A stretch of DNA of 61,091 nt from a virus (lineage: Duplodnaviria; Caudoviricetes): IMG/VR virus record IMGVR_UViG_3300021335_000017, positions 1 to 61,091 of that record, one strand, 5' to 3'. Position numbers and translations under genes: made by a program. Below the pieces are notes generated by a model. That model did not search any database, was not told the origin of the DNA, and saw only the letters and a program-made list of their open reading frames with translations. Shown piece by piece: positions 1 through 31,897 of this stretch. Every line of letters starts with the position of its first letter. Position 1 is the stretch's first letter.

Positions 1-1527
1 AGTCTTAATTTAGTGGATGCGGTTGGCACTATCGATGGTGCTACCGACAAAATTGTTAGGGTAAAAATAAAACGTGTTGCCGGAGGTTCTGATTGGCAGG
101 GTTGGCTTAGATACTCACACTCAGGCGAGTCTAGGGTTTCGTTTAGTAACCAGACGACATACGTTCAGATTTCTGACCCTACAACTACAGATGAGTGGGT
201 AGTTGCTGAGTTTGACATGACTAATGCTCCCGGGTGGGACAATACTGTAGATGACTTGCGTTTTGACTTTGGTAATACTGGGGCTAGTGAGTTCCACATA
301 GAGTGGATAAAAATTGGCGCTACTAGTAAGACTTTAAGTGCAGCTATTCAGACTCAGCAATCTTCTATTGATGGGGTTGAGGCTAATTACACGGTTAAGA
401 TAGACAATAACGGATCTATTGCTGGTTTTGGTCTTGCGTCTACTACTAGTGATTCTGGGAACGTAACCAGTGATTTTATGGTAGCGGCAGATAAGTTTTC
501 ACTTATGCCGTCAACTGATAGCGCAATTGCAGATTGGGCAAACGCTACAGCCTACGTCGTCGGTGACCAAGTTAAGTCTAATGACAATTACTGGGTGTGT
601 ATACAAGCCCACACTTCTGCAAATGCTAAAAAACCTCACGTAGCTGGCGGAGCAGATTACTGGAACCAAACGGACAAAACACCTTTTTCGGTACTTACAT
701 CGGCTCAAACTGTAACTGTCGGTGATGAAACCGTGACAATTGACCCGGGTGTTTATATAGATGCTGCTTACATTAAAGATGCGGATATTACTGCAGCGAA
801 AATAGGGGAGATTAATGCCGACAGTATTACTTCAGGTACATTAGATGTCACTAATCGTATAAGTGCCTCTTCTATAGAGGCCAGCAAGATATTGCTTGAT
901 GGCACTACAATGACCTCTACAACAATTGTCGGAGGCGTTAATGACGGTTTGACTGCTCTTAAAGTAGGTGCAATTAGTGCTAATGCAATAACTTCAGGGA
1001 CTATAAACGCTGGCCGACTAAATCTGGGCTCTGGCGATGAGGCGATGCTTACTGCTGGGGGTACTGGCAATAATGTCGTTCAAATTAAGGATTTAGCAGT
1101 AGATACGCTTCAATTAGCTGACCAAGCAGTAACAATACCAACTGGTGCATACACAGCAGGACAATACGAATGGTCAGCAGCTGGTTATAAAGACCTGCAA
1201 ACAATAACATACTCGCAAACTGCTGTTCCTATTGCTCTATTTTGGTCTCTTACTTGTAAACTTAGCTCATGGGGCGATGATGATTTTGAAACTCCAGCAA
1301 CATTCCATGTACGAATATTAAGGAATAATGTGGAGCTGGTAACATATGATAATCTTTTTCCTACTTTCAGCACAGGCGGTATCACGAGAATGGCGGGCGC
1401 TACGAATATACATACCGGTAGTGCTGGAACAGTTACTTATAAGCTGCAAGCAAAAGGAACAGGTACATCATTCAGAAAAGCTAGAGTTACTTCTAGAAGT
1501 ATGGTTACAATGGAGTTAAAGAAATGA
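1..1527 (+). CDS. Tail fibre / host-specificity protein, 5'-truncated copy of 56507-59263
   Basis: Frame is open from base 1 and matches the C-terminal half of the 918-aa ORF. Contains a DUF1983-like motif YTVKIDNNGSIAGFGL...DFMVAADKF. Confidence 0.85.
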   Translation, partial: SLNLVDAVGTIDGATDKIVRVKIKRVAGGSDWQGWLRYSHSGESRVSFSNQTTYVQISDPTTTDEWVVAEFDMTNAPGWDNTVDDLRFDFGNTGASEFHIEWIKIGATSKTLSAAIQTQQSSIDGVEANYTVKIDNNGSIAGFGLASTTSDSGNVTSDFMVAADKFSLMPSTDSAIADWANATAYVVGDQVKSNDNYWVCIQAHTSANAKKPHVAGGADYWNQTDKTPFSVLTSAQTVTVGDETVTIDPGVYIDAAYIKDADITAAKIGEINADSITSGTLDVTNRISASSIEASKILLDGTTMTSTTIVGGVNDGLTALKVGAISANAITSGTINAGRLNLGSGDEAMLTAGGTGNNVVQIKDLAVDTLQLADQAVTIPTGAYTAGQYEWSAAGYKDLQTITYSQTAVPIALFWSLTCKLSSWGDDDFETPATFHVRILRNNVELVTYDNLFPTFSTGGITRMAGATNIHTGSAGTVTYKLQAKGTGTSFRKARVTSRSMVTMELKK

Positions 1528-1968: not shown

Positions 1969-2096
1969 TTTTATTAATATAATATCGCCTTATCTAATGA
2001 GGCTCCCCAATGATTACTTATATGCTGGCGTTTGCTATCGCATCGCTATCTCTTATTGCTGTTGACGATTTAAAAATAAGTCGTAACTCACGATCC

Positions 2097-2338: not shown

Positions 2339-2352
2339 CCTAGGAGGGTGCA

Positions 2353-3354: not shown

Positions 3355-3550
3355 GATTTGCTGTTAAATAGTTTGACACTTCTACAGTAGGGAACAGGTA
3401 TTTCTTACCGCGTTTGACATGTGCTATATCTAACTTGCCTAAGTATATTTGTTGGTAGAGAGACTCTTTTTTAAGCTTGAATAAACTGGCTAACTCTCCT
3501 AAATCCATAAATGGACCATATTTATCCATTAGCATCTGTTGCATTTCCAT
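3341..3550 (-). CDS. Excisionase-like HTH protein
   Basis: 69 aa, FMDLGELASLF...KRGKKYLF winged-helix pattern; convergent with int. Confidence 0.75.
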   Translation of the reverse strand: MEMQQMLMDKYGPFMDLGELASLFKLKKESLYQQIYLGKLDIAHVKRGKKYLFPTVEVSNYLTANLSTS

Positions 3551-3713: not shown

Positions 3714-4292
3714 TTAAATATAAATAAATGCAACTACCGCCCAAAGCTTCTGTATATCTGACGTTGGCGGAACGTCCTTTTTTAGGTAAAAACGTAACTT
3801 CTTTTCCTTTTTTAGTCTTGCCGCTAATATTTTTGCGCTAGGGTATTTATCTACAGCACATATTTGAGCTACTCCAGTAAGACCAGCAGTTGTTACTGGC
3901 TCTCTGTTTATTTCTTCACATCCTTCTATTTGCGCAGTGTTAGAAAGCTTTACATAAGTTGTAACGTCATTTTTTCTAGAATAGAAATGCTCTTCTAACG
4001 GCCGTGTCATATCGTCAGAATTATAACTAAGCGTTAATCTACTGACGTGTGGCAAGTTATGTTCTATTTCTGGGTCTATTTCTATCGGATCTACATCTAG
4101 AAAATTTGCAAATTTAACAATAGCCGCAGGGTTAAGGTCGGTTAAGTTATTAAGATAATGACTGATTGCGCTTTGCGTCCAGTCCATATCTTTTGCTGCT
4201 TCTACTTGTGTAAATTGCATTTCAATTTTTTTCTGTTGCCAGATGTTTCTTAGATTCCGTACTGCTACTGGCAAAGTCTCTGACTTGCTCAT
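3714..4292 (-). CDS. Lambda CI-like XRE repressor
   Basis: LRNIWQQKKIEMQFTQVEAAKDMDWTQSAISHYLN resembles the lambda CI N-domain. Start at ATG 4292 with a GAAGGGA RBS. Confidence 0.8.
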   Translation of the reverse strand: MSKSETLPVAVRNLRNIWQQKKIEMQFTQVEAAKDMDWTQSAISHYLNNLTDLNPAAIVKFANFLDVDPIEIDPEIEHNLPHVSRLTLSYNSDDMTRPLEEHFYSRKNDVTTYVKLSNTAQIEGCEEINREPVTTAGLTGVAQICAVDKYPSAKILAARLKKEKKLRFYLKKDVPPTSDIQKLWAVVAFIYI

Positions 4293-4686
4293 AAGTTGTC
4301 CCTTCATGGGTTTGTTGATATATCCAGTTAGCCACCTCATTCCGAGGGACACATAGTTCAAGATACTTCATTTTACTTATATTAGCAGAAAAGTCATCAA
4401 CTATTATTAGTGCAAAGTCTTCGATTCCTAATATTAATGCTACTTTAGTACTGTGCTTCATCCGCTCAAGCCAGTCTATTTGTAGCTTCGAAAGGGAGTG
4501 TCGAATTATAGTACTGTCACGTTTTGGTAGTTGCTTTACATATTTGTACTCGACAAAAAGCACGCCGGACGGGCCAGCGTACATGGCATCGGGTACCCCT
4601 CCTGTGTATGTATCGTGAATTTTCCACTTATATACATCAGGTGAAAGTTTGCGATGGATAGCTTTTACAAAACTATGTTCATTCAT
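4222..4686 (-). CDS. VRR-NUC-like PD-(D/E)XK nuclease
   Basis: GVPD...LFVEYK...LSKLQIDWL motif. Confidence 0.75.
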   Translation of the reverse strand: MNEHSFVKAIHRKLSPDVYKWKIHDTYTGGVPDAMYAGPSGVLFVEYKYVKQLPKRDSTIIRHSLSKLQIDWLERMKHSTKVALILGIEDFALIIVDDFSANISKMKYLELCVPRNEVANWIYQQTHEGTTYEQVRDFASSSTESKKHLATEKN

Positions 4687-4695
4687 AAACTTTAG

Positions 4696-4767
4696 TGATC
4701 CGTTTTGGCTCTTGGTGGATCAGCCCAAGCTCTTTTCTACAAGCCTTTCTGTATAGGAGAACAGAAA
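4696..4767 (-). ncRNA. Putative pseudoknotted cis-RNA element A
   Basis: GGCU/AGCC and CUUGG/CCAAG stems; loop UGAUCC pairs with downstream GGAUCA. Same architecture as 14671-14751. Confidence 0.55.
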
Positions 4768-5433
4768 TTATTTAGAGTGCTGCTCGTATAAAGTCTCAGC
4801 TTTCTTGTAATCATCTTCTTGAGCCCAGCCTTCGAACTCAACATCTAGATTCATGAAAGCATTACCCATACGGTTTTCGACAGCTACTGATTTGATCTTC
4901 CATAGACCAGCAAAACGATCACCACCTTTCAGTGCGATTTGCGAGTTCCAGTTTCTGGAGATACGTAGTTTAGATGAAGCAAAATCCATAACGATTGGCG
5001 TTTCATCTAGCTCACCTGTTTTAGGGTCTTTCAACAATAAAAGGTGAGTGTGTGTTTCGGTGATAGTGTAATCAGCCGGTTTTTCTTGCGCGTTGATAGC
5101 TTCTTGTGCTTCAGCATGAGAACTGTAAGCACCAAGTAAGCCGCCGCCAGCTTCGCGGTTGCGCCATACAACATGCTCAGTTTTGAATGTAATGCTTAGT
5201 GCATACATTTCGTCACCGTAATTTTCACCAGTCAACGTGTTAAGGAAGTTGCCAACTTCGGCACCCTTAACATAGTTAGCGTGATGCTTATCTACTTCGT
5301 CAGACATTTTCTGAAGTAGTTTTACACGAGGTATGGTTAGTTGTTGCCCTACGTTTTCGTTGCCACGGCCTGCTGTGGCTTTGACATATGCAGGGATTTT
5401 GTCTTCTTGGATTGCTAACGCTGTGCTACTCAT
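4768..5433 (-). CDS. Putative ssDNA-binding/annealing protein
   Basis: 221 aa in the replication module; LTIPRVKLLQKMS motif recalled from phage SSB-like proteins. Confidence 0.5.
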   Translation of the reverse strand: MSSTALAIQEDKIPAYVKATAGRGNENVGQQLTIPRVKLLQKMSDEVDKHHANYVKGAEVGNFLNTLTGENYGDEMYALSITFKTEHVVWRNREAGGGLLGAYSSHAEAQEAINAQEKPADYTITETHTHLLLLKDPKTGELDETPIVMDFASSKLRISRNWNSQIALKGGDRFAGLWKIKSVAVENRMGNAFMNLDVEFEGWAQEDDYKKAETLYEQHSK

Positions 5434-7188: not shown

Positions 7189-7249
7189 ATAGTTATACTC
7201 TTCATGTTTTATCTATTCATTGTTCATTTTTAATCTGTTTAGTTATAAA

Positions 7250-7266
7250 TATTAGCACAGCTAATA
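7250..7266 (-). promoter_or_regulatory. Operator embedded in a sigma70-like promoter
   Basis: TATTAG-cacag-CTAATA; minus-strand TGGACT-17-TAATAT. Confidence 0.8.
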
Positions 7267-7277
7267 TAAAAAGTCCA

Positions 7278-7451
7278 TCAAATGCGCGTTCTCTTACCAC
7301 AAAGCCTACAGTCTTCAGGCCAATGGTTTATTTTTATTTCTATTGGGCATTTGCAATAGTGCAATTTAGAATCGCTTTCAAACTTGTACGAGCCACCAGT
7401 TTTTACTTTCTCTGGCGTTAGCTGCAGTTTATCCCTTTCAGTCATTATCAT
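7278..7451 (-). CDS. Small Cys-containing hypothetical protein
   Basis: CKC...CRLC; fills the gap between two operators. Confidence 0.4.
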   Translation of the reverse strand: MIMTERDKLQLTPEKVKTGGSYKFESDSKLHYCKCPIEIKINHWPEDCRLCGKRTRI

Positions 7452-7467
7452 ATTAGCCCCACTAATA
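7451..7467. promoter_or_regulatory. 17-bp palindromic operator
   Basis: TATTAG-cccca-CTAATA, directly after the stop of 7468-8169. Confidence 0.8.
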
Positions 7468-8169
7468 TTAGTGTTCGACAAAAATGACTGGTCTCTGGCT
7501 AGTCCAACAGTATCCACATGTAGTACAGCTTTTTGTACGACCAGTCTGCTCAGGGCAAATTATACCATCATATTTGTCTGCGTCTTGATATGCTAAGTCA
7601 GCATCTGGTGTTACATGTGCACTAAATTGTGTGCTTGCGTCGTCTGAAAATCTTATAGCCCAACGGTCTTTGTATACACGGTTAATGGTCTTTATCATCG
7701 AACCAATGTCCGATGTCCGTTCCCAATGTGTATAGCCAAACACTCGTAGCGCAGGGTATTTGTGTAACCAGTACTGCCACTTGACTACATAGTGCGTACT
7801 GAAGAAATCCCCAAGGACGTGCAGTCTTACGACAAAACCATCGGGGTGTTTTTCGTTAAGTTGTTCGAGTTCGCTTTCGAGCTTCGTGTAGAAGTCAGGA
7901 TGCGTATGGTCGAAACGGTGGCCAAAAGGCATATTGTTGCCATAACAGGTCTCCCATTGTTTACAGGTAGAAGGGCATGTTGCTCGCTCTTCAAGGGTTA
8001 ATGAATACATTGTCATAGACTTCCATTTCTTAGTCTGTACTTTGTCTCCTAGCTTTTTATTTAACTTTCCTCGTTTCAGCATGGTTGCGAATGACGGTGC
8101 CCGAACGTTTTTTAGATACTTTGTTCTTCCTACTGTTATCGCATTTTTCAGTGCTGGTGATGTCATCAA
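7468..8169 (-). CDS. GP88-like Cys-rich (radical-SAM-like) protein
   Basis: TCPSTCKQWETCY, RLHVLGDF, FGYT and C-terminal CP...SCTTCGYCW motifs. Confidence 0.65.
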   Translation of the reverse strand: MMTSPALKNAITVGRTKYLKNVRAPSFATMLKRGKLNKKLGDKVQTKKWKSMTMYSLTLEERATCPSTCKQWETCYGNNMPFGHRFDHTHPDFYTKLESELEQLNEKHPDGFVVRLHVLGDFFSTHYVVKWQYWLHKYPALRVFGYTHWERTSDIGSMIKTINRVYKDRWAIRFSDDASTQFSAHVTPDADLAYQDADKYDGIICPEQTGRTKSCTTCGYCWTSQRPVIFVEH

Positions 8170-8431: not shown

Positions 8432-8467
8432 AAAAAAGCCCCTAACTGATGGTGGTCAGTTAGGGGC
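8432..8467 (-). terminator. Rho-independent terminator
   Basis: GCCCCTAACTGA-ccacca-TCAGTTAGGGGC followed by T6 on the minus strand. Confidence 0.85.
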
Positions 8468-8506: not shown

Positions 8507-9256
8507 CTATTCAACACCCCAGGTGCATTCTGGGTGTTCGCCTTTTCTATAGGAACACCACCTACATGCATCTTTGCTGGGGGTGGGTGAGAAATCATCA
8601 CAGGTTGTCATTTCTACAGCGCGTTTGTGCCAAGTAGGCATGAACTGCATTGCTTGATCTCTAGTAAAACTTTTAACTGTTGTTTCACCTAGATCTAGGT
8701 ACCACAGTTCTGTTTGCGCAAACTGCACGTCTGGAAATCTTAAGAACGTTGCAATTGCATATAACAAAGCTTGTTGTGAATGTCCGATTTCATTGCCAAA
8801 TTTTTTACCTGTTTTGTAATCGATTACTCGGACACATGTTTCGTCTTGGTGAACTAGCGCATCTAATTTGATACGAGCCCATGTTGCTTTTTCCATCCAG
8901 CCAACTGGATTCCAATTTAAGTCAAAGCCCCATTCACCTTCGAGTTCAACTTCTGCGTTAGCAAAGCCTTCGCGCAGTTCTTCAAACTCTGATTTGAATT
9001 TGATTAAGGTGTCAGGGAATTCACCAAGCGTTCCGTTTACATAATCTTCTGCTTGTTGGTGAATCATGGTGCCGCGTTCAGCAGCAGGGCCTGATTCTTC
9101 TTGTATTTTTTTGACCTTAGCAATGTAAGATCTGTATGGGCATTGCTCAAATACTTTAAGTGCTGAGTAAGACCAAGACTTTAGCTCGCCTAATTGTTCT
9201 GGTACTTCGATGGGCTTAAGTGCATCTGGTCTCTTTTCCTGAGTTAGAGAGATCAC
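8507..9256 (-). CDS. PD-(D/E)XK (RecB-like) exonuclease with Fe-S cysteines
   Basis: SWSYSALKVFEQCP, IKLD, IDYKTGK, Q..LYA and CRWC......C motifs. Confidence 0.88.
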   Translation of the reverse strand: MISLTQEKRPDALKPIEVPEQLGELKSWSYSALKVFEQCPYRSYIAKVKKIQEESGPAAERGTMIHQQAEDYVNGTLGEFPDTLIKFKSEFEELREGFANAEVELEGEWGFDLNWNPVGWMEKATWARIKLDALVHQDETCVRVIDYKTGKKFGNEIGHSQQALLYAIATFLRFPDVQFAQTELWYLDLGETTVKSFTRDQAMQFMPTWHKRAVEMTTCDDFSPTPSKDACRWCSYRKGEHPECTWGVE

Positions 9257-9284
9257 GTTAATTCCTATCCGTTATTATAAGAAG

Positions 9285-9301
9285 TATTAGTATAGCTAAT
9301 A
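9285..9301. promoter_or_regulatory. 17-bp palindromic operator
   Basis: TATTAG-tatag-CTAATA, intergenic. Confidence 0.8.
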
Positions 9302-9303
9302 TA

Positions 9304-11817
9304 TCAACTTGTGGCTAATAAACGTTGGTCATTTTCTTCAAAGTATGCAGATATATACATGTCTTTGTCTTCTTCACTAATCTTCCAATTAAGTACAATC
9401 CCCCTTACAGGGGTAGAGTCACGGCTTGCCCCAGGGGCCCGTTTGCGTGTTATCTCTAAACCGTTACGGCTTAGGCGCTTTTTAAATTCTTGTTGCGACA
9501 GTCTTGGAGTTTGCTCTGTTTGTATGTGAAACACTGTTCTTAAATGTTCACTTGGTATAACACAGTAGTCTTCATCGCTAGCTGCTATCCAACTTTTAAC
9601 TAAACGTTGTGCAGCAAGTATTTCGTTTGCATGTAATACTGAACCAGTATTGATATCTAATATGTCTACAAAGTAAGCTAAGTTACCGTCTTTAACTGCC
9701 TGACAGAACTCATCGAATACAGACATAGATACATTGCGCATTTGTTCTTTTGCAGTGTTGTCTATAGGTATTTCTACTAGTCGCTTGTTTACTTTAAATG
9801 TCTGTAAATAACCAGCAAATGCCCAAAGTTCGTTTTCAATCTCATCTGCATCGAGACGCTCTGGCATATCTGGATAAGCTTGTAACAGTTTAGTTTTTTG
9901 CATAGGTGCGATGTTGTAGCGTCTGTCACCCGATTCTATGTTTACAGCATCTACTCTGTTAGTAAGAAATATATAGTTTGTATAGTTAGGTACTTCTACT
10001 TGGTTAGAGCGCATACCTCTAATTGTTATTGTTTTTTCAGTTATCTGGTTTTTAAGTTTGTCAGCCATTTTTGATGCACCTGACGAACTTGATGCCATGT
10101 GAAATTCATCAACAACTAGAAATAGTGCATCTCTCATATATAGATTAAATTGCTCTTCCATGTTTTGTAAGTAACGCATCGGTACATGGTGAGTACCAAA
10201 TAAGTTACGTAATATGCGACTGTAAAACACACCTTTACCTGTACCTTGTGTACCTGTAAGTACCCATGATACGCCGGTCTTTTTGCGTGTTTGGTAGATG
10301 TAAGCTAGCCAATTAATGAAACGCTCAAACTCTTCTTTGCCGTTACCTAGCATATGAGATATAACTCTGTAGGTAAGAGGGCAGTCGTCTTTGATTCGTT
10401 GTCCGTGGCCAATGGTCAACGGTTCATCAGGCAGCTTAGCTTTTAATGCGTATTTTGTTTTTCTATATGTATTAACGTAATGCGGTACGTCTTTGAAGTT
10501 AACAGCTGGTTTCTCAGATGTTGGGTCAAATACTACAGTACCGTCTGGTATAAAGTCAGGAGCTATCTTGCCATGACTTAAGAAAAAGTCTTCAATGTTT
10601 GTTTTACTTATTGGCGTTAATGGAAACTTGTCAGAGAACTGATCTTCGTTTGGGCAATAAACACCGTTGTAAAATGTATCAGTATAGAAGTCACGCATTA
10701 CTACCGGAAATTCGTGTCTGCCTACTGCTTTTAATTCACTTTCAAATGTATCAAATATACTTCTGTAAAATTCTGGATCAGCTTTTTCTATTTCAAAGAT
10801 TGGTTCATCTTTGAAGTTGTGCATGTATGTTGGTTTTTCAATATTAAAATAATAAGCGTTTGAATCACCACCATTAATATTACAACGTACGTAAGGAAAC
10901 GACGTGCTGTCAGATATGCTGATAGCCATTTTGTCTGGATTAACTAGTATTTCTTCTGTTGTATTATCTACTGTAGTTAGTCTTGTTTTAGTCTGTTTCT
11001 TTTTGTAGCCAGCTTGTTCCCGCAGTCTATCTTTGTATGTTTGTGCTTTTTCGTGAATGCGTTGTGGGCTGATTTGTGCCATTAAAGACGCTAAGTCAAA
11101 GGACCATTTTTCACGTTCAACTAACACGATTCTATCTTCAGGCTTGTTGAAAGGATCTAAAGTATCGTCTTCAAAAGTAGGTGGAGCTGTAAATATAATT
11201 TTTGAGTTGTCTGCAACAGAACTGTCTAAGGGCATTTTAAGTGATTGCCCGTTTACGGATAGTTCTAGTTGGCTGCTAAATATATCAGATTCGTAATTAC
11301 AATCTTGTAACCAAAGCTTAATTGATTTTGGTGGCATTGCTACAGTTAGAAACATAAAGATGTGCAGCGAAGTCTTGTCTCCTTTGAGTCCAAGACTTGA
11401 AGATGCTTGAGCTATGTAGCTTACGTTCTGTAGCTGTAGTGGTAGTTCACCAATTACTTGATTAGCTAGAAATGCGACATCTGCTGCAGATAATTTGCCT
11501 GTGGCAAGAGGGCGTGAAAGTCGTACGCCATCAACATCTAATATAAGTAAGCTAGACAAAGCATTTCTGTCTGATTTACCAGCTCTGCTTTCGTCTACTA
11601 AATCTCTTTTTAGATTCCCTTTTAACATGCAGTGCCCCATGTCGGAATGGGATCTGATTAATTGTTCTAATTTACGTAAACCAATTTCGTCTGTTGAAAC
11701 ATCATGTTTGTGGGAAGTGACTGCTTTAACTAACGGATACGACGTGAAGCCGTTTAACTTCGAATAAATCTTACTGAGTCGAAGACCGTTGGTAGCCTCC
11801 AAAAAAGTCACCCGCAT
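9304..11817 (-). CDS. Primase-helicase (AEP-like N-terminus, D5/SF3-like NTPase)
   Basis: ILDVDG and SLHIF in the N-terminus; GTQGTGKG, VVDE, FLTN and GDRRY in the C-terminus. Confidence 0.88.
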   Translation of the reverse strand: MRVTFLEATNGLRLSKIYSKLNGFTSYPLVKAVTSHKHDVSTDEIGLRKLEQLIRSHSDMGHCMLKGNLKRDLVDESRAGKSDRNALSSLLILDVDGVRLSRPLATGKLSAADVAFLANQVIGELPLQLQNVSYIAQASSSLGLKGDKTSLHIFMFLTVAMPPKSIKLWLQDCNYESDIFSSQLELSVNGQSLKMPLDSSVADNSKIIFTAPPTFEDDTLDPFNKPEDRIVLVEREKWSFDLASLMAQISPQRIHEKAQTYKDRLREQAGYKKKQTKTRLTTVDNTTEEILVNPDKMAISISDSTSFPYVRCNINGGDSNAYYFNIEKPTYMHNFKDEPIFEIEKADPEFYRSIFDTFESELKAVGRHEFPVVMRDFYTDTFYNGVYCPNEDQFSDKFPLTPISKTNIEDFFLSHGKIAPDFIPDGTVVFDPTSEKPAVNFKDVPHYVNTYRKTKYALKAKLPDEPLTIGHGQRIKDDCPLTYRVISHMLGNGKEEFERFINWLAYIYQTRKKTGVSWVLTGTQGTGKGVFYSRILRNLFGTHHVPMRYLQNMEEQFNLYMRDALFLVVDEFHMASSSSGASKMADKLKNQITEKTITIRGMRSNQVEVPNYTNYIFLTNRVDAVNIESGDRRYNIAPMQKTKLLQAYPDMPERLDADEIENELWAFAGYLQTFKVNKRLVEIPIDNTAKEQMRNVSMSVFDEFCQAVKDGNLAYFVDILDINTGSVLHANEILAAQRLVKSWIAASDEDYCVIPSEHLRTVFHIQTEQTPRLSQQEFKKRLSRNGLEITRKRAPGASRDSTPVRGIVLNWKISEEDKDMYISAYFEENDQRLLATS

Positions 11818-11842
11818 AGCAAGCCCTCCTAAAGCCGCGTAA

Positions 11843-11859
11843 TATTAGTATTACTAATT
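11843..11859. promoter_or_regulatory. 17-bp palindromic operator
   Basis: TATTAG-tatta-CTAATT, upstream of the primase-helicase. Confidence 0.78.
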
Positions 11860-12036
11860 TAATTTATCGTTAGAAAGTATTTCTGAGCGATCGATCTTGA
11901 CTTCCTTGTCTGCTTCGAAAGATATTCTGACTTGATTCCTGTCTATTTTATTAACGGTGAGTTTGGCTATGGTTTCTCCGTCTTTATGTAGGATAACCTT
12001 TTCGCCAAGCTTTCTTGTTAAAACTAATCTAGACAT
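11854..12036 (-). CDS. csrA: CsrA/RsmA-family translational regulator
   Basis: LVLTRKLGEKV...NQVRISFEADKEVKIDRSEI aligns with CsrA (LILTRRVGE...[20 protein letters not shown]). Confidence 0.9.
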   Translation of the reverse strand: MSRLVLTRKLGEKVILHKDGETIAKLTVNKIDRNQVRISFEADKEVKIDRSEILSNDKLN

Positions 12037-13851
12037 TTATTTACTGTAGTTATTTGCGTAACCGCCTTCCGCGTCGAGTGGTATGTCTGCACACCAAGAG
12101 GGTGCTAAACACATATCGTCAATAATATTAGACATTGTAACATGAGGTTGCATAATATTAGCAACAATAATAATTTCGTCGTGTACCTGTAATACAACAT
12201 CAAGTTCTTTTTGTTTTGATAGCCGTAAAATACTGTCAGTAATTACTATTCTCGACAATGCTTGAACTACGTTTTCTGTAATACGTCCGCCGTACGTATA
12301 CTCTTTCCTTCCTCTGGACTCGTAGGATAGCCCCTCTGAAGTCGATCTTAAGTTTTGGTATTTAAGTGCCATACCGTTTGGCAGCTTTAAACCATGCTCA
12401 ATAACTTCAAGAGGGCCATATCTGTGCCCATAGTTGTCTTTGTGCAAACTAAGCTTTAGTAAATCTTCAAGTTTAGTCCACAGCGTTTTGATCCCGGGGT
12501 ATGTGTTGCGATAGGTGTTTACAACATCTTGAGCTTCGGTTTCCGTGAAGTCTAAAGACGGGCCCATTGCCCCGGCTTTCAGTGTGTCTCGGAACTTTTT
12601 ATGGCCCATACCGTAACCAAGTCCGAGTATTGCAGTTTTACCTACAAATCTTTCTACTGGATCGTCCTTTTTGTTGATAGGACGTTCGTATATTTTTTGC
12701 GCAAAGTTAGAATAAATATCATCTCCTTTGCGGAATTGTTCTACTAATTCAGTTTCCCCAGCTAGCCATGCAAGCATACGTGCTTCGATGTTACTTAAAT
12801 CTGCAACATATAAATAATTATTTTCTGGGGCTATGAGACATTGTCTGATCTCTCCGCCTCGAGGCAGATTTTGCATGTTGAGTTTTTCTGTACCACCAAA
12901 GCGACCTGTGTGGGCAGCATAGTATCTGAGTGGTACTGGGATAGTGTCGTCAGCAGACGAAGCGGCGTCCAGGAAGCGTTTGCTTCTTGTTTCTGTAAGT
13001 CTACTTTTTACAGCGATTCTACCGTTCCATATATGTGCAAAGTTTGGATACATGTTGCACATTTGTTTGAAGCCCGCATCGTTTTTGCCCAACGCAGGGA
13101 TGTTTTCTCCTGTTGTTGGACTACGTTTAGTTGGCACGCTTATCCCTAGTTCTTCTTCTATATATTCAGCAAACTTTTTGTTTGAACTAAGTACATCTTT
13201 TGGCACGCCTGAGTCTTCTATTTTCTTCTCACTGTTTGCGAACTCTTGTTTGTGGTACGTGGTTAGTCGTTCACGGTCAATTTTTAGTTTGGGTTCGCAG
13301 AACATTCTGGTTGTGATATCGATGATATCCATTTCAGAAGTAGGGTAGGTTTTGATTAGTTGGTTGTAGATAGCGTAGGTTAGATCGACATCTTGGATAC
13401 AATAGCCCGCTATTTGCTCCTCGATGTCAGGTGGTAAATCATAAATGCCTTTAGCATTTATCAACTCTTCACCTTTACGCATTGTTTCGTCGTTTGGGAA
13501 AAGGCGAACTGCGCAATCTTTTAAACGTGCAGACTGCCCGGGGAACCAACCTCTGCACATTGCTGCTGTGTCTGTGTAGTACGCAGGGATTTTTTTGTAA
13601 TATTGTGTAAGTATGTACCCGTCAAACGGCGTGTTGTGGCACACTAAGTTAACGTTGCTCCAGTCGATATTGTTGATAGCATCTTCAACTTCGTCTTCGC
13701 CAAACCATTCTGTATCATCATGATTTATCTTGATGCCGACACCCCAGACTTTAAATTTGTCATGCTTGATATAGTCCATTGTGGTTAGCTTGGTAAGACT
13801 AACTTGGACGTCGTAATAGGTTTCAAAGTCGAGGGTTATGACATCAAGCAT
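12037..13851 (-). CDS. Family A DNA polymerase with 3'-5' exonuclease
   Basis: LDFET, HTGR, ADLSNIEAR, RFVGKTAILGLGYG and VHDE motifs. Confidence 0.96.
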   Translation of the reverse strand: MLDVITLDFETYYDVQVSLTKLTTMDYIKHDKFKVWGVGIKINHDDTEWFGEDEVEDAINNIDWSNVNLVCHNTPFDGYILTQYYKKIPAYYTDTAAMCRGWFPGQSARLKDCAVRLFPNDETMRKGEELINAKGIYDLPPDIEEQIAGYCIQDVDLTYAIYNQLIKTYPTSEMDIIDITTRMFCEPKLKIDRERLTTYHKQEFANSEKKIEDSGVPKDVLSSNKKFAEYIEEELGISVPTKRSPTTGENIPALGKNDAGFKQMCNMYPNFAHIWNGRIAVKSRLTETRSKRFLDAASSADDTIPVPLRYYAAHTGRFGGTEKLNMQNLPRGGEIRQCLIAPENNYLYVADLSNIEARMLAWLAGETELVEQFRKGDDIYSNFAQKIYERPINKKDDPVERFVGKTAILGLGYGMGHKKFRDTLKAGAMGPSLDFTETEAQDVVNTYRNTYPGIKTLWTKLEDLLKLSLHKDNYGHRYGPLEVIEHGLKLPNGMALKYQNLRSTSEGLSYESRGRKEYTYGGRITENVVQALSRIVITDSILRLSKQKELDVVLQVHDEIIIVANIMQPHVTMSNIIDDMCLAPSWCADIPLDAEGGYANNYSK

Positions 13852-13999
13852 CGGCTTTTCCCTTTTTGTTTTTGGTGTTAATAGTTTCTGTAAGGTATGG
13901 TAGTTTTTCTATCTTTCCGCCATTGGCTAAAAAAACCTGAATATCCTTGTTAAGTTGTTCCCGCTCACGTGCTTTTATATTGGTGCTGCCGATTGACAT
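13844..13999 (-). CDS. SutA-like RNA-polymerase-binding small protein (51 aa; not in the ORF track)
   Basis: Hand-translated MSIGSTNIKAREREQLNKDIQVFLANGGKIEKLP...; AAGGA RBS; FLAxGGKI motif. Confidence 0.7.
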   Translation of the reverse strand: MSIGSTNIKAREREQLNKDIQVFLANGGKIEKLPYLTETINTKNKKGKADA

Positions 14000-14148
14000 T
14001 ACTTGTCCTTAATTTTATTAGATTTATGTGTTCTTAATTCCCATTCGCGCTGTTTGTCTCTTAGTATTAGATATGCTCCATCTAACAAATACAGTAAGAC
14101 AGCTGCTGCAGCCGCGCCTTGCGTTGCATGAATAAGTTGTTCGCTCAT
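13999..14148 (-). CDS. Small hypothetical protein (49 aa)
   Basis: MSEQLIHATQGAAAAAVLLYLL...; TAATG coupling at both ends. Confidence 0.55.
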   Translation of the reverse strand: MSEQLIHATQGAAAAAVLLYLLDGAYLILRDKQREWELRTHKSNKIKDK

Positions 14149-14339
14149 TAGAAGGGGACCTCGTCTGTGCATTGTTGCGCAGCGTAAATTTCTCCTTCTT
14201 TGTGTTTGAATTCAGAGAGCAGCTCTTTGTAGATTTCTGGTTGGCGTGACTTAACCCACACAGTTAAAAAGCTGTGAAATTCAGGATGCGCATCTTTTTC
14301 TACATTAGGTAGATTTTCGAAATATTCCTTAGTGTCCAT
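14148..14339 (-). CDS. Hypothetical protein
   Basis: AGGAG RBS; in operon. Confidence 0.65.
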   Translation of the reverse strand: MDTKEYFENLPNVEKDAHPEFHSFLTVWVKSRQPEIYKELLSEFKHKEGEIYAAQQCTDEVPF

Positions 14340-14362
14340 CGCTCTCTCCTAGAGGTTTGGTT

Positions 14363-14647
14363 TTAGTTATGTACTTCAACGTTCTTTATAAGTCGGTCTA
14401 AGTACCATGCTGCTTTTTTACAATCTTCTAGTTTTTTACCTTTGTATGACATTCTCCAAAGGTACTTAATGCAGTTTGCTTTTAAATAACCTTGGAATTC
14501 ATCAGCTGACATTGATGCTTCTATAGCTTCAATGCATTCGACTTTTCCTGTGTTGTAATGTGCAGGGTTATTAACCATGTCTTGGATTGCATTGTGGGCT
14601 TTAGATACTTGATCCCACTCTTGGGGGCTTACATCGTTTAATTTCAT
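14363..14647 (-). CDS. DUF3310 / T7 gp1.7-like protein
   Basis: DMVNNPAHY...ECIEAI...IKYLWR...ED..KA.WYL motif. Confidence 0.85.
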   Translation of the reverse strand: MKLNDVSPQEWDQVSKAHNAIQDMVNNPAHYNTGKVECIEAIEASMSADEFQGYLKANCIKYLWRMSYKGKKLEDCKKAAWYLDRLIKNVEVHN

Positions 14648-14670
14648 TGATCGATCCTCGAGTTAAAAAA

Positions 14671-14751
14671 TTGTGCGTTTAAGGTCACTAGTGCACAAAG
14701 CTAGCTAATACACATACGTCTGTGTAGGAGGAGCACTTCGTATGTTGACCT
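14671..14751 (-). ncRNA. Putative pseudoknotted cis-RNA element B
   Basis: AGGUC/GACCU, ACAUACG/CGUAUGU and GCUAG/CUAGU stems; loop UUGUGC pairs with downstream GCACAA. Confidence 0.55.
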
Positions 14752-14768
14752 AATAGTATCTATACTAA

Positions 14769-14785
14769 TATTAGCCTTACTAATA
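14769..14785 (-). promoter_or_regulatory. Operator in the spacer of a TTGACA-18-TAGTAT promoter
   Basis: TATTAG-cctta-CTAATA; TTGACA at 14791-14786 on the minus strand. Confidence 0.82.
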
Positions 14786-14787
14786 TG

Positions 14788-15924
14788 TCAATGCGGCAGA
14801 TAGACAGTTTCACCAAATGGTGCTTGTAAGGAGTGATTAGTAGATACCCAAAGTACAGGACATTGCACAACTCTTTCGGATTCTGCAAAGTCCTGTGCAT
14901 CGGTTTCTAGATCAGTTAGATAAACGATTGCATCGACATCCTGATGATTTTCATCCATCCACTCAAAGGCGGGTAAGAATTGCGTACCGCCTTGCCCTTT
15001 TAGATCTAGATGTTCTTCACCAAGAGTTGAATCTTGGTCAAGCTCAAATGTCTGTTGTACTTCGTAGTCTGCGTGTACAACGACAACTGATTCCGGGCGA
15101 ACATCCTTTATTATTGAATTAAGTTCGCCAACAAACTGTTGCTGGTCTCTTGATGTGCTGCCGCTAGTGTCAAATATGAGACCTACCTTCCCACAACCTT
15201 CTGACCGTAACGATGGTACATACTCGTCCTCCGATAAGTATGCTCGATTTGGTCTTGCCCACGAATAATCGTTGGTTGTAAGGTTTGTAAAAAAGGGCCA
15301 AAGAACAGTTAACCAATTAACTTTGGGAGATACTATGTCTTCGATGAATTGAGACAAGTGTCCCGGTAATTTACCGCGTGATTTTGCTTGTTCAGCAGCT
15401 TGGGTTACGGCTATTTGCCAGTCAGCTTCTTGCTGTGCATTACTTTCCTTGGTTAGTGATCCGTTGTCAGCGTCTAACACTATGCCCCATTTACATTCTT
15501 GTAAGGATTCTCCATCGTCTTGTCTTTGTTTAAGATCGGTATAAATTGCTTCGGCAGACCATTTATCGTCGTACTTGTCGTCGAGTAATGCGCCTTCTGG
15601 TAATACTAATCCGCTCTTTACCACTAGTGGGTTGATGGCGTAGTCACATGCCATGTTCCACAGTTTAGGGTCTCTGTCACCACGTCTTGTGTGATGGTTA
15701 CCTGTGCAATGCATTACCTCATGCGCAGTTAGCCCGCGCAGCTCCATTGCGCTTTGTTTCATAATATAGTCAGGGTTGTAGATTAACCGCTTGCCATCAG
15801 TAGCAGCAGTAGAGCATTCATCAGGTTTAGATAATAATTTAAGGCGCAGAGCCAACGTACCGAAGAACGGGTGGTCCATCAGTAGTTGTGCTCGCGCTTT
15901 TAGCATTGCAGTTTCAGCGGACAT
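14788..15924 (-). CDS. DUF2201-like metallopeptidase + VWA protein
   Basis: TAATDG, AHEVMH, WNMACDYAIN, FDTSGS, GQGGT and YLTD motifs. Confidence 0.88.
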   Translation of the reverse strand: MSAETAMLKARAQLLMDHPFFGTLALRLKLLSKPDECSTAATDGKRLIYNPDYIMKQSAMELRGLTAHEVMHCTGNHHTRRGDRDPKLWNMACDYAINPLVVKSGLVLPEGALLDDKYDDKWSAEAIYTDLKQRQDDGESLQECKWGIVLDADNGSLTKESNAQQEADWQIAVTQAAEQAKSRGKLPGHLSQFIEDIVSPKVNWLTVLWPFFTNLTTNDYSWARPNRAYLSEDEYVPSLRSEGCGKVGLIFDTSGSTSRDQQQFVGELNSIIKDVRPESVVVVHADYEVQQTFELDQDSTLGEEHLDLKGQGGTQFLPAFEWMDENHQDVDAIVYLTDLETDAQDFAESERVVQCPVLWVSTNHSLQAPFGETVYLPH

Positions 15925-15925
15925 A

Positions 15926-16639
15926 TTAGCCTCCAACTAATTTAGCCGTTAGTACCATCTGGTTAGCAGCGTCTGCATCAAAGTTGACTGATTCGCGACG
16001 TTGTTTGGCTGCCGACACACGTGTTACTTTTTCGTGCATCTTTGATATAGCTTCTTGGTCAACAAGATTCTCTGCGGCAGGCCACGTCTCTAGCAGCTGT
16101 TTAAGTGTGTTACAGTTTTGAAGTAGTGCAGTTATCTGCTCACGGTATTGTTTCTCAGCATCATCACGATCGTGTCTTGATGTGTGTGCTTCGTTCACAT
16201 ATTCGAGAATTTCCGTGCGATGTTCGTTGTCCAGATCATTTACCCACAGTTCACAGTCGTAACTGCTGTAATGACCGGGTTTGTTCCAAAGGCTTATTGG
16301 AGTATCAAACTCGACATTTAGCTCCATGTGATCTTCGTTCCACTGTGTTCTTCTATCTGTTTTTTCTTGATCAGTTGCGGGTCTTTTGATTGTTAGTGCT
16401 GTAAATCTATAATCTTCAGGACCCATTTTTTCTAGCCCAAGACCACTTACACTGTTTTCACTGATTATGTCGCGTATTTGCCTAGCAACTTTTTGGAATG
16501 TAGATTCTGTAACAGCTGCTTTAAGCTTGGACTGGAAATCATTAGATGGTTTCCATTTCGGATTAGCTACTTCGAAAGCGTCCATAGCCCTTGATAGTAT
16601 GCGAGTGCGCATTTCTTGCGATAATCTGACAGATGCCAT
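15926..16639 (-). CDS. Nmad5-like protein
   Basis: N-terminal RLS..MR..I and C-terminal NTLKQLLETWP motifs. Confidence 0.6.
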   Translation of the reverse strand: MASVRLSQEMRTRILSRAMDAFEVANPKWKPSNDFQSKLKAAVTESTFQKVARQIRDIISENSVSGLGLEKMGPEDYRFTALTIKRPATDQEKTDRRTQWNEDHMELNVEFDTPISLWNKPGHYSSYDCELWVNDLDNEHRTEILEYVNEAHTSRHDRDDAEKQYREQITALLQNCNTLKQLLETWPAAENLVDQEAISKMHEKVTRVSAAKQRRESVNFDADAANQMVLTAKLVGG

Positions 16640-16649
16640 GATGTTTCTC

Positions 16650-17648
16650 CTATAGTAAAACTGACGCGTTTTCTTGCGTCCATGTTGTGAATGCTGGTTG
16701 TGTCATTAACTGTTTGTCTTTAGCCATACAGTCACGAACAACCACGACTTGATACTCTGCTGGCATGCGTTTAACGTACTTCATGATTGCGTCAAAGTTG
16801 TTGGCGTCAACACGTGAAGCAAGTGCACCAGCAATTGCGTACAACACTGATGTGTTGCTTGGTACTTTTGTATGTGATGGTTTCTTGATTAGTTCGTCGA
16901 TGTCAGGAACATCTTTGTATATTGCTTTGAACGCAAGATACTCACCAGCTGGCCCGTCGCCTACGACTGATGCGCAGCCATAAAACTCATCTTCCATAAA
17001 TGGTAGTTTTCTAGATAACATTTCCCATGTACGAGGTGTTGGTGAAGCATTCTGTGAAGGGTCAATGTCATGCAGAAGAGCGGGGCGGTAACGCAAGAAC
17101 GAGATCAAAGATTCATCAATGTCATTGTTAACAGCCCAACCTACCCAATCATCAATGTTTGGCTCGATAGTGTAATGAGCAAAACGTGTTTTAAGTGGTG
17201 TAGGCATTTCGTGAACAGCGGCACGATCTTGAGCGCGGTTACCACATGCAATGATTGTAGTGTTTGGTGGAAGTGTATAAGTACCAATCTTGTGATCAAG
17301 CGTAAGCTGCAGCAGGGCGTTCTGTGTTGCTTTCGGTGCGTTAGGCAACTCATCAATAATAACAAGTACTGGTCCTTGATAGTCTGATGGCGGGTAATCT
17401 TCCGGGATACCGTAGCGTGTTTTGTACGTACCATCGTCCATTTCTACTACCTTGAGACCACCACGTACGTCGACTGGGTCAAACAAGTTAGCACGTATTT
17501 CGAAAATTTTTGATTTGGTTAAGTGCCCAAATTGGTAAGCCATTGCAGACTTAGCACATCCGGGTGGTCCCCAAAGCATGCTTGATATACCGGCAAGCGC
17601 ATTTGCTTTTAGTTCCGGTGTAAGACAAGAGGGTCGTATTGTCCTCAT
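16650..17648 (-). CDS. MoxR-like AAA+ ATPase
   Basis: WGPPGCAKS, IIDE, ACGN, LKTRF and TPRTWE motifs. Confidence 0.9.
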   Translation of the reverse strand: MRTIRPSCLTPELKANALAGISSMLWGPPGCAKSAMAYQFGHLTKSKIFEIRANLFDPVDVRGGLKVVEMDDGTYKTRYGIPEDYPPSDYQGPVLVIIDELPNAPKATQNALLQLTLDHKIGTYTLPPNTTIIACGNRAQDRAAVHEMPTPLKTRFAHYTIEPNIDDWVGWAVNNDIDESLISFLRYRPALLHDIDPSQNASPTPRTWEMLSRKLPFMEDEFYGCASVVGDGPAGEYLAFKAIYKDVPDIDELIKKPSHTKVPSNTSVLYAIAGALASRVDANNFDAIMKYVKRMPAEYQVVVVRDCMAKDKQLMTQPAFTTWTQENASVLL

Positions 17649-17878
17649 AAGTTCACTCCTAGGTTAAAGGTTTCGTTAAGGCTTGTAGCCATTGTGTTGA
17701 TCTGTTCCCAGATATAGTCTCCGTCTTTAGCTTCGAGCGGTTCCCATGCTCGATGTTCAAGTTCCATGAATAGTTGTTCGTCGTCCATTCCATCCCAATC
17801 GGCAGGCAGTTCTGAATATAAATAGAAGCCTGCTGAATATTCGATAAGCGATGTTTGTGTCCACGGTTCGTTGTTCAT
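17645..17878 (-). CDS. Hypothetical protein
   Basis: GAGGA RBS; ATGA coupling. Confidence 0.65.
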   Translation of the reverse strand: MNNEPWTQTSLIEYSAGFYLYSELPADWDGMDDEQLFMELEHRAWEPLEAKDGDYIWEQINTMATSLNETFNLGVNL

Positions 17879-17880
17879 GC

Positions 17881-18048
17881 TCAGTCCTCAAGAGGAAGCA
17901 GACTTGCCAGGCTGCCAAGACGTGCTTCATCGATTTTGTCGTCTACAAAAGGGTCTTCTTCATAAGGTTTGTAGTAACCTTTTTTCTCTTCGTAGTCTGA
18001 ATAGTCGTAGCTTGGATCGTCGTCTATGCGACAGGGTTCGCGGTTCAT
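17881..18048 (-). CDS. Hypothetical acidic protein
   Basis: MNREPCRIDDDP...; TAATG coupling with the upstream ORF. Confidence 0.55.
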   Translation of the reverse strand: MNREPCRIDDDPSYDYSDYEEKKGYYKPYEEDPFVDDKIDEARLGSLASLLPLED

Positions 18049-18197
18049 TACTCGTCCTCTCCGATTATTTCTTCGTTGATTAAGTCCCATAGGGAATCAA
18101 GTATGGGGTTGTAGCCTTCTATGTTCCTTTCTCCGATGTAGTTTTGCAGAGAGTCGATCACTTCAAGGGCTTGATGTTTGTTTTCAATTTCAATCAT
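18048..18197 (-). CDS. Hypothetical protein (49 aa; not in track)
   Basis: MIEIENKHQALEVIDSL...; GGAG RBS; overlapping stop/start. Confidence 0.55.
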   Translation of the reverse strand: MIEIENKHQALEVIDSLQNYIGERNIEGYNPILDSLWDLINEEIIGEDE

Positions 18198-18373
18198 TTG
18201 TTTTCTTCTCCGTAATCCATGTTTACTTTGTACATGCCGCCGCCTACTGGCTCTACAAAGCCAACTTCTAATGCATACCGTAGAAGTGAGTCTTCGTCAT
18301 ATTCAAAGTTGAGAGCAGGGGCTTGTGATTTCCACAATTGCTTTTTATTCACAATAATTTCTTCGTCACTCAT
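18194..18373 (-). CDS. Hypothetical protein (59 aa; not in track)
   Basis: MSDEEIIVNKKQLW...; GAGGAGG RBS. Confidence 0.6.
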   Translation of the reverse strand: MSDEEIIVNKKQLWKSQAPALNFEYDEDSLLRYALEVGFVEPVGGGMYKVNMDYGEENK

Positions 18374-18543
18374 AGTTCCTCCTCGATCGTCTCATCGATG
18401 TCATAGTTAGAATTTGTAAGTACTTCAGGTCGGTATTGGGCCATTTTGTCTGTGTAGCATTTGTCGCAGACTTTACAGAGCTCTATGCCTCGTGCGTCGT
18501 ATTCCCACCAACTGGCTTCGTTTTCATGTAAACAAATACCCAT
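18370..18543 (-). CDS. Small Cys-containing protein (57 aa; not in track)
   Basis: MGICLHENEASWWEYDARGIELCKVCDKC...; GAGGG RBS. Confidence 0.6.
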   Translation of the reverse strand: MGICLHENEASWWEYDARGIELCKVCDKCYTDKMAQYRPEVLTNSNYDIDETIEEEL

Positions 18544-18707
18544 TAGATTCCCTCGTTTACTGTTTCGATTACCCTCTCTAAAAGAAGGGCATCATCTGAG
18601 AAATCTTTCAGTTGCATAAGAACTTCTGCGTATCTAAAGTCTCTGTTAATTGCGTTGTCGCCAAAGGCCAACTCAAACACTTCTTCTACGAACTCGTCTT
18701 TGGTCAT
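18543..18707 (-). CDS. Hypothetical protein
   Basis: MTKDEFVEEVFELAFGD...; AAGGAG RBS. Confidence 0.6.
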   Translation of the reverse strand: MTKDEFVEEVFELAFGDNAINRDFRYAEVLMQLKDFSDDALLLERVIETVNEGI

Positions 18708-18936
18708 TACTCTTCTCCTTATTAGCCCTACTAATAACGCTACGCGTAGTAAAAATTTCAGAACTTTGTGGAAGCTCCACCTTTGATTCAAGTAACTTGT
18801 CAAAGAATTTGTCCATGATTTCGTTACAAGTTTTGTTACATATAGCTAAGTTTTTTTGCCATTCGACTGGATCTTCCATATCAATGCACCGTGCTTTTGT
18901 TAGGGTTTTTCGACCATAGTTCGCCTTCAGCTTCAC
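18673..18936 (-). CDS. Hypothetical protein
   Basis: Sense-strand ORF; true start uncertain. Confidence 0.45.
   Translation of the reverse strand: MKLKANYGRKTLTKARCIDMEDPVEWQKNLAICNKTCNEIMDKFFDKLLESKVELPQSSEIFTTRSVISRANKEKSNDQRRVRRRSV
18720..18736. promoter_or_regulatory. 17-bp palindromic operator
   Basis: TATTAG-cccta-CTAATA, adjacent to the RBS of 18543-18707. Confidence 0.75.
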
Positions 18937-19153
18937 TGTTTAACTCTTCTGCAAGTTCCATGACATATGAGATAAGCTGTTGTACTTTGTTGGTATCTCC
19001 GTCAGCCATATGCAATGCGGCTTGAAGAAATATACTGAGGCCCGCAACACATAATTCATGTGCATCAGATTCATCTGGTAAGGCGTTAACAATTGCGTTG
19101 CGAATGTCTAGCATTCGTTCTGTTCTTTCTTCCGCTTCTTTTTCATCTATCAT
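18881..19153 (-). CDS. Hypothetical protein
   Basis: AGGAG RBS. Confidence 0.65.
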   Translation of the reverse strand: MIDEKEAEERTERMLDIRNAIVNALPDESDAHELCVAGLSIFLQAALHMADGDTNKVQQLISYVMELAEELNSEAEGELWSKNPNKSTVH

Positions 19154-31886: not shown

Positions 31887-31897
31887 TTAATACAGGT

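Follow-up and report, generated by a model that had tools for sequence, protein, structure and literature searches.

A predicted junction-and-pseudoknot RNA module recurs, singly or in tandem, in uncultured marine phages

Introduction

The class 1 xrRNAs of flaviviruses, which resist 5'-3' exonuclease, fold into a three-way junction of helices P1, P2 and P3 that is latched by a pseudoknot between a hairpin loop, that of P3, and a strand 3' of P1, and they occur in tandem copies ahead of non-coding RNA with no gene specificity. H-type pseudoknot leaders, among them the 5' pseudoknot of phage T4 gene 32 and the preQ1 and SAM-II riboswitches, pair a loop with a downstream strand in a 5' leader near the ribosome-binding site and place an A-rich strand so that it crosses the minor groove of the stem. 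The ring of the xrRNAs, through which the 5' end is threaded, is given as 15-16 nt, and a further pairing, PK1, joins the 5' end to the junction (PMC8374639). The cis-acting put RNAs of phage HK022 form a V of two stem-loops that includes a short triplex, have few conserved bases and owe their function to the fold; putL, of about 70 nt, lies just downstream of the repressor-controlled promoter PL, and putR lies between genes (PMC9378689). The put RNAs suppress termination and bind the beta' zinc-binding domain.

We analyzed a locus in a 61,091-nt virus record (the whole of this stretch is called the window here) in which the initial annotation had drawn a junction-plus-pseudoknot leader, element B, after an operator-covered promoter and upstream of DUF3310 and polA genes. 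Comparison with other phage contigs shows element B to be one copy of a conserved, predicted sense-strand RNA module of 55 to 85 nt in uncultured marine phages. In this study, we describe the anatomy of the module, the positions in which its copies sit and the covariation of its helices, and we weigh what it may do for the transcript that carries it.

Results

The minus strand from 14751 to 14671 is identical, letter for letter, to the annotated element B, and all features of the element given here are on that strand. P1 is formed by AGGUC (14751..14747) and GACCU (14686..14682), the latter lying directly 3' of P3 with no gap. Within P1, a 7-bp P2 hairpin (14712..14745) pairs ACAUACG (14745..14739) with CGUAUGU (14718..14712) around a 20-nt loop that contains CUCCUCCU and CUCCUCCUAC. 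The joining strand J23, GUAUUA (14706..14711), leads to P3 (14687..14705), in which GCUAG (14705..14701) and CUAGU (14691..14687) form 5 bp with a G-U closing pair around the 9-nt loop CUUUGUGCA (14700..14692). After P1 come the linker UAAAC (14677..14681) and, starting 5 nt past P1, the pseudoknot strand GCACAA (14671..14676), which would pair with UUGUGC at loop positions 3-8 (14698..14693). The general fold predicted for the module is the same: a P1 of 4-5 bp surrounds a P2 hairpin that varies and a P3 of 5 bp, whose 9-nt loop pairs over 5-6 bp with a strand past P1 that follows a 5-nt NNAAC linker. The 5 bp of P3, the 9 nt of its loop and the 14-15 nt from loop to pseudoknot strand are fixed, and P2 is free. 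Strands resembling J23 in other groups, such as AUUGA and AAUGA, are only moderately conserved, and the NNAAC linker occurs in every member, an invariance that is partly by construction since AAC was demanded by both the search pattern and the descriptor described below.

The surroundings of element B agree with what had been annotated there. A sigma-70-like promoter site (14762..14791, minus strand), identified by consensus match only (10/12), consists of TTGACA (14791..14786) and TAGTAT (14767..14762) separated by 18 nt, and P1 begins 10 nt past this predicted -10, in the promoter-proximal position that had been proposed. The palindrome ATATTAG-N5-CTAATAT (14786..14768) sits between the two hexamers, in the spacer of the predicted promoter, as expected of the operator-covered promoter in the annotation. 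This palindrome has four copies in the window, where 100 shuffles give an expectation of 0, and the copies look like the regulon of one repressor. They lie at 7249-7267, 7450-7468, 14768-14786 and 31868-31886, the last just ahead of the leader of the capsid gene, and ATTAG-N5-CTAAT-like sites are also present in the relatives L005-L008, L295 and L320. At 3714-4361 the minus strand codes for an HTH_3 protein. Two of the palindromes flank a small ORF (about 7451..7278, minus strand) whose roughly 57 codons include Cys-X-Cys and Cys-X2-Cys motifs.

The gap that holds element B is bounded upstream by a DUF2201/VWA-like gene (15936..14788) and downstream by the DUF3310 gene (14647..14363), which the family A DNA polymerase gene follows (13851..12037), so that the DUF3310-polA gene order given by the initial annotation stands. 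Between the element and DUF3310 are a U6 tract (14670..14665), the Shine-Dalgarno (SD) sequence GAGGA (14659..14655) and the DUF3310 ATG (14647..14645), all on the minus strand, and no ORF of at least 40 aa covers element B on either strand. Farther along the minus-strand early region, a strong intrinsic terminator (8467..8438, minus strand) consists of a 12-bp stem and a T run, and further minus-strand genes lie beyond it.

Several other features of the window were noted. Positions 1-3355 repeat 57737-61091 at an offset of 57736, and the ORF at 2353-3354 is the ORF at 60089-61090; the record is that of a complete phage genome of about 57.7 kb that has terminal redundancy or was assembled as a circle. 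Several hairpins occupy the leader of the capsid gene, which is about 190 nt long (31890-32107, plus strand), and just 5' of the capsid SD stands a terminator-like GUGGCA-UG-UGCCAC with a U run, a kind of structure that differs from element B. Cultured relatives of two window proteins, at no more than 37% identity, have mostly gamma- and beta-proteobacterial hosts, and these distant cultured phages point weakly to the host of the window phage. Contigs from four DNA runs have 38 variable sites over 1001 nt. In the 81-nt element (14671-14751) a single substitution falls on the final base of the P2 loop, and a single insertion, an additional A after GCACAA in one run, would add a pseudoknot pair; this pattern weakly suggests purifying selection on element B. 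RNA runs covering 9000-18999 were sought, and none was listed.

Folding of the single sequence does not favor the annotated structure. The minimum free energy (MFE) structure of 14650-14760 is a different fold (z = -1.28), and for the 81-nt element the nested part of the annotated fold reaches -13.0 kcal/mol against an MFE of -21.4, with negligible ensemble probability; the pseudoknot duplex contributes about -8 kcal/mol more. Because pseudoknots are not modelled in such calculations, we take the folding of one sequence as evidence neither way. By its own sequence element B is not distinguished from chance, whereas comparison with other sequences confirms the predicted element as distinct from it.

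We wrote a descriptor consisting of a 5-bp P3 with a 9-nt loop ending in A, a P1 3' strand (P1') of 4-5 nt, an NNAAC linker and five pseudoknot pairs with loop positions 4-8. It matches the window exactly twice, at element B and at 4745..4696, both on the minus strand and both intergenic; 300 shuffles of the window gave a mean of 0.05 matches, and none of them reached two or more. The second element, here called type A (4696..4767), lies between a Pam3_Gp34-like gene and the ORF 4686..4222. Its hairpin stands 5' of P1 and consists of UUUCUGU, the loop UCUCCUAU and ACAGAAA (4767..4746); P1 pairs GGCU (4745..4742) with AGCC (4710..4707); P3 is CUUGG, the loop GCUGAUCCA and CCAAG (4729..4711); and the linker AAAAC is followed by the pseudoknot strand GGAUCA (4701..4696), all on the minus strand. 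Element B had been assigned to one motif family with an "element A": an element of the same architecture does exist in the window, but its identity with the element so named is uncertain.

The type A element allowed a search in which the choice of loci made no use of the RNA pattern. Eighty loci were chosen purely by homology to the Pam3_Gp34-like protein encoded upstream of it, and the descriptor gave nine matches in them, eight of these distinct, with two loci carrying two copies. All nine are on the sense strand and in the gap after the Pam3_Gp34-like gene; 30 shuffles of the same loci gave 0-2 matches, and 168 kb of control loci gave none. The type A pseudoknots GAUCC/GGAUC, GAUGC/GCAUC and GACCC/GGGUC differ in sequence and are constant in length. 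Forty of these loci were inspected, each of the remaining 40 having the same match statistics as one of those listed. The element is present in 7 of the 40 inspected; in the other 33 the flanking genes are mostly 6-40 nt apart. Since these 33 loci keep both flanking genes without it, the element is an optional insert. A close relative, G011 (L276), has the type A element after the same upstream gene and with a different gene downstream.

Relatives of element B were also sought by synteny. Among 13 viral contigs with a relative of the DUF2201 gene, four (L001 to L004) carry an element at the same place, with P1, P2 and P3 sequences that differ and still pair; the pseudoknot UUGUGC/GCACAA of the window becomes GGUGC/GCACC there. 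P1 starts about 19-20 nt past the predicted -10 in L001 as in L002 to L004. The other nine contigs are without the element, one of them ending at the contig edge, and in four of the nine (L005 to L008) a similar palindrome is followed immediately by an SD and another gene.

Further phage groups were found with a pattern made from the P3 loop and the pseudoknot strand. Most matches to a looser version of it are chance, 95 failing a test for 4 bp of P3 and 15 distinct ones passing. Candidates were dropped when they lay antisense inside a conserved ORF (L048, L054, L115, L120, L128 and L135), within coding sequence (L041, L052, L093 and L131), or were without P3 (L251, L257, L267 and L274), and six singletons were dropped as unconvincing (L040, L043, L064, L084, L097 and L109). 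The antisense set resembles the module in its P3 loop, in P1 and in the pseudoknot strand and was treated as a chance look-alike; the ORF opposite it has a product that begins MNIFA...DKH(V/I)VKMP. The L015/L016/L023 group, which matches around P3 only (15.2 bits), was excluded from every count.

Two groups were retained. In the tandem group, one to three copies are present, the first 8-9 nt past the stop of a 95-aa ORF, and downstream of the copies about 300 nt of non-coding sequence end in terminators and face a convergent gene. Copies 2 and 3, whose pseudoknot is GGUUC/GAACC, were missed by the pattern. In L256 (plus strand) an insertion of about 60 nt replaces the short P2 hairpin of the second copy, which indicates that P2 is a freely variable domain. 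The non-coding stretch of this group has a conserved domain of its own (L027, about 1500..1255, minus strand; also L017, L019, L025, L254 and L269, with L270 lacking it), which opens with a UUCCU(U/C)GC(A/G)GGAUAGGGGG segment, has long-range pairing to CCCCCG plus a U run, has no Rfam match and is followed by a bidirectional terminator. ARAGORN found no tRNA or tmRNA in five tandem-group loci. In the leader group, the element stands 8-10 nt 5' of a strong SD. One gene downstream of it, a PDDEXK-like gene in L227 (1560-1600, plus strand), has no ATG, GTG or TTG between the J23 stop (relative L114/L240) and the conserved N-terminus, and the strong SD AAGGAG lies 6 nt 5' of an in-frame ATC, an arrangement that points to a non-canonical start codon.

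A covariance model built from the tandem and leader groups alone, R1, finds element B in the window at 28.5 bits (E = 4.9e-5), a match that is partly circular because the seeds came from a window-derived pattern. R1 misaligned P1 of L001 and L004, and its match at 27707-27770 on the plus strand of the window (12.7 bits, E = 0.42), inside an ORF, was ignored. A pattern scan of genome contigs for prophage copies returned one match, by chance. A conserved sequence 5' of the L035/L058 group, considered as a repeated phage promoter, proved to be single copy, in one of three partial records, and a search for a T7-type RNA polymerase in five partial records gave no match, as it also gave none in control genomes.

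The fold is supported by covariation. Two-sided pair changes leave P1, P3 and the pseudoknot intact across 26 distinct curated elements, whose phage contigs are unrelated, so the pairing drawn for element B is conserved in its homologs and its junction-plus-pseudoknot fold is borne out by the other elements. The 3' domain was aligned for 26 elements, which give 21 distinct rows. Pairing holds in 98.6% of the cells of P3 and the pseudoknot, compared with 71.8% for shuffles and at most 39% with slid partners; the near-perfect score is partly by construction, with P3 and pseudoknot pairing, the loop-final A and AAC having been search criteria. Two-sided changes occur in 9 of the 10 pairs of this domain, a value reached by none of 500 shuffles: in all five pairs of P3 (21 distinct rows) and in four of the five pairs of the pseudoknot core, where 99% of cells are paired through such alternatives as GUGC/GCAC, GUUC/GAAC and AUCC/GGAU. 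Nine full-length aligned sequences show two-sided changes in three of five P1 pairs, three of five P3 pairs and two of five pseudoknot pairs, with 98% of cells pairing. MAFFT could not register P1 and P2 across all groups, and pairs were therefore also counted by script from coordinates. By this count, P1 of the 17 type-B elements is canonical in 84/85 cells with two-sided changes at all five positions, and in all 26 elements P3 is canonical in 126/130 cells and the pseudoknot core in 129/130; none of 2000 partner shuffles reached these values for P1, P3 or the pseudoknot core. In type A the 5' strand of P1 was picked among several candidates, and the lineages are few. Free folding of the sequence between P1 and P3 predicted a hairpin, varied in sequence and length, in 17/17 type-B and 4/9 type-A elements. 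Loop position 3 is an invariant U (26/26).

The RNA strand, which the initial annotation had read for element B as the minus strand, is fixed by G-U pairs, which close P3 in 12 of the 26 elements, and all copies are sense-oriented. An anti-SD-like sequence had been noted in the P2 loop; a count by eye finds CUCC in the P2 loops of 7 of the 17 type-B elements, so that it is not universal, and in L238 and element A the anti-SD-like loop has no SD there with which to pair.

Taken over all groups, the module is present in 0 to 3 tandem copies, its presence is optional and it is not bound to one downstream gene. It lies directly after an operator-bearing promoter-like site (the window, L001, L320 and L295), 8-15 nt past a stop codon, or where a non-coding stretch begins. 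The initial annotation had tied element B to the replication genes, and that role is not supported. In the leader group an identical element precedes different genes (L235 vs L238), a PDDEXK-like gene in some contigs and an unrelated ORF in others, the tandem copies of one phage group head a non-coding stretch, most relatives with the same two flanking genes have no element between them, and R1 reached E < 0.01 in only one of 80 DUF3310 loci, on the same contig as L001. An optional element with 0 to 3 copies and no fixed gene argues against a sensor specific to replication genes.

The module matches none of the 4227 families of Rfam. Searches with Rfam 15 gave no match at gathering score in the whole window, none at E ≤ 10 in 14620-14800, and unrelated weak matches only in 15 (8 + 7) homologous loci and in 4640-4800; the single weak match at E ≤ 10 in the element A region is to an unrelated microRNA model. 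Our searches of the literature on phage RNA motifs, xrRNAs and put RNA gave no description of it, although journals beyond those searched may contain one, and a bioRxiv preprint on RT-linked arrays of 150-nt units showed none either.

Discussion

The anatomy of the module and the pattern of its occurrence fit an element that acts on its own transcript and not a sensor for one pathway. Of the functions considered, we favor a self-contained, compact, knot-like protective fold, an inferred role to which we give a probability of roughly 30%. Such a fold would hinder 5'-end-dependent decay by blocking the access or scanning of RNase E or, in a host that possesses a 5'-3' exonuclease, by blocking that enzyme; the downstream RNA would live longer, no ligand would be sensed and the identity of the downstream gene would be irrelevant. 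The points that tentatively favor this role are the covariation, the detection in loci chosen without the RNA pattern, the independence from any one gene, the modularity and the position at 5' ends, and tandem copies ahead of a terminator-ended non-coding stretch are more easily understood as a protective cap than as a gene switch. Single-sequence folding, which favors another structure, speaks against this role. Classic 5'-terminal stabilizers sit nearer the RNA 5' end than does P1 in L001-L004, about 19-20 nt past the -10, and an A/U-rich stretch like the one after the pseudoknot is the kind of site that RNase E cuts, which also counts against protection. Gamma- and beta-proteobacteria usually lack RNase J, and a roadblock to a 5'-3' exonuclease is therefore doubtful for this phage, given its likely hosts.

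The likeness to flavivirus class 1 xrRNAs bears directly on the protective fold. Both have a three-way junction, whose P1 and P3 covary in the phage element, both are latched by a pseudoknot between a hairpin loop and a strand 3' of P1, and both occur in tandem ahead of non-coding RNA without gene specificity. The loop-to-pseudoknot stretch, constant at 14-15 nt, compares with the 15-16 nt of the xrRNA ring (PMC8374639). A pairing of the PK1 type was sought between the 10-nt 5' flank and J23 of 15 elements, and the mean run was 3.07 against 3.18 in shuffles; the module is not a member of xrRNA class 1, because the pairing of 5' end and junction is absent. The two also differ in that class 1 xrRNAs belong to RNA viruses and the module to DNA phages, in that no Rfam model matches the module, and in that the xrRNAs resist a 5'-3' exonuclease that the likely hosts of the phage element may lack. 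We speculate, and give it a low probability, that the module is a portable knot-like RNA cap, a functional analogue of xrRNAs in DNA phages of marine bacteria, or that its arrays are decoys against RNA-targeting defence. As a cap, it would stall the host's 5'-end-dependent decay when placed at the 5' ends of early transcripts or, in tandem, ahead of a non-coding RNA.

A put-like antiterminator and a protein-binding or decoy RNA are nearly as likely as the protective fold. As a processive antiterminator, the nascent fold would bind host RNA polymerase and carry it past downstream terminators, which we consider possible, though unlikely. In size and place HK022 putL is similar to the 81-nt element B, 10 nt past a predicted -10 (consensus match only), and both are phage RNAs that lie between early genes or just past an early promoter under repressor control, have few conserved bases and rely on their fold (PMC9378689). 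In the window, the operator-bearing promoter-like site lies directly upstream of element B, the strong terminator at 8467..8438 lies in the same direction of transcription with minus-strand genes beyond it, and a module that comes and goes would suit elements needed only where terminators exist. However, put RNA is described as two stem-loops without a pseudoknot (PMC9378689) and has no three-way junction, whereas the supported fold of the module has both. The tandem copies, moreover, head non-coding stretches at the end of a transcription unit and face convergent genes, with only non-coding sequence downstream, a setting in which antitermination has no evident purpose.

A site for a phage or host protein, of comparably low probability, would make the leader copies translational or stability operators and turn the arrays into a decoy or sponge, directed for instance at an RNA-targeting defence of the host. 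The shape of the module is conserved around few invariant unpaired bases (loop U3, the loop-final A and AAC), its copies vary from 0 to 3 and are optional in early regions, and a pyrimidine-rich loop, (C)CUCCUA/UA, recurs in both types, on a hairpin inside P1 or 5' of P1. The tandem non-coding layout is also the one expected of a sponge. The analysis found no candidate partner protein, though, no gene consistently co-occurs across the groups, and the tandem copies differ from one another, whereas the copies of known repeat antitoxin RNAs are alike.

The remaining readings are less likely than these three. That the module is a riboswitch, or some other ligand sensor that controls the downstream genes in response to a general signal, is improbable. 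The aptamer-like junction and pseudoknot in 5' leaders, 8-20 nt ahead of an SD, the U tract that follows the pseudoknot in several members, and the tandem arrangement, which is known for some riboswitches, all suit such a sensor. The module also resembles H-type pseudoknot leaders, in which a loop likewise pairs a downstream strand near the ribosome-binding site and an A-rich strand is likewise placed to cross the minor groove of the stem. Unlike those leaders, the module has a whole P1/P2 domain inserted between hairpin and pseudoknot strand, and unlike T4 gene 32, preQ1 and SAM-II it has no link to an autoregulated or metabolic gene and no Rfam riboswitch match. In the loci compared, we found neither association with genes of one pathway nor an expression platform: no terminator, SD-masking helix or SD-sequestering alternative is conserved, and neither L001 nor the tandem copies have the U tract. 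No Rfam class matches at E ≤ 10, the conserved unpaired bases are few, the same element precedes different genes or none, and most syntenic relatives are without it.

Slightly less credible still is a new class of small self-cleaving ribozyme that would process polycistronic phage transcripts. The module is small and sense-oriented, intercistronic and tandem in phage DNA, and present or absent between the same two genes, and hammerhead, twister, pistol and hatchet ribozymes have similar placement in phage-like metagenomic DNA; against this, no Rfam ribozyme model matches, invariant unpaired bases are few and, by inspection, the strands of the hammerhead core are absent from J12 (0-4 nt) and from the variable J23. 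Finally, a DNA-level site (a cruciform, an origin or a recombination site) or a chance pattern is very improbable despite the adjoining palindromic operator and the want of a significant single-sequence folding signal, because the G-U pairs, such as those closing P3 in 12 of 26 elements, would read as A-C mismatches on the opposite strand, all copies are oriented with the flanking genes, the pseudoknot covaries, and descriptor matches are enriched over shuffles and control loci.

The structured RNAs of phages are far less charted than their proteins, and the module described here adds to them a compact, covariation-supported fold of junction plus pseudoknot that behaves as a movable cassette of early regions, present or absent, single or in tandem, in leaders or between genes. 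With helices and linkers of fixed length, it lends itself well to structural study, and it could serve as a small portable part for RNA engineering. If the analogy with xrRNAs were true, it would imply stable phage RNAs, including sfRNA-like non-coding RNA. Should the module prove to be a stabilizer, a polymerase modifier or a decoy, it would add a new tool to those with which phages control early expression.
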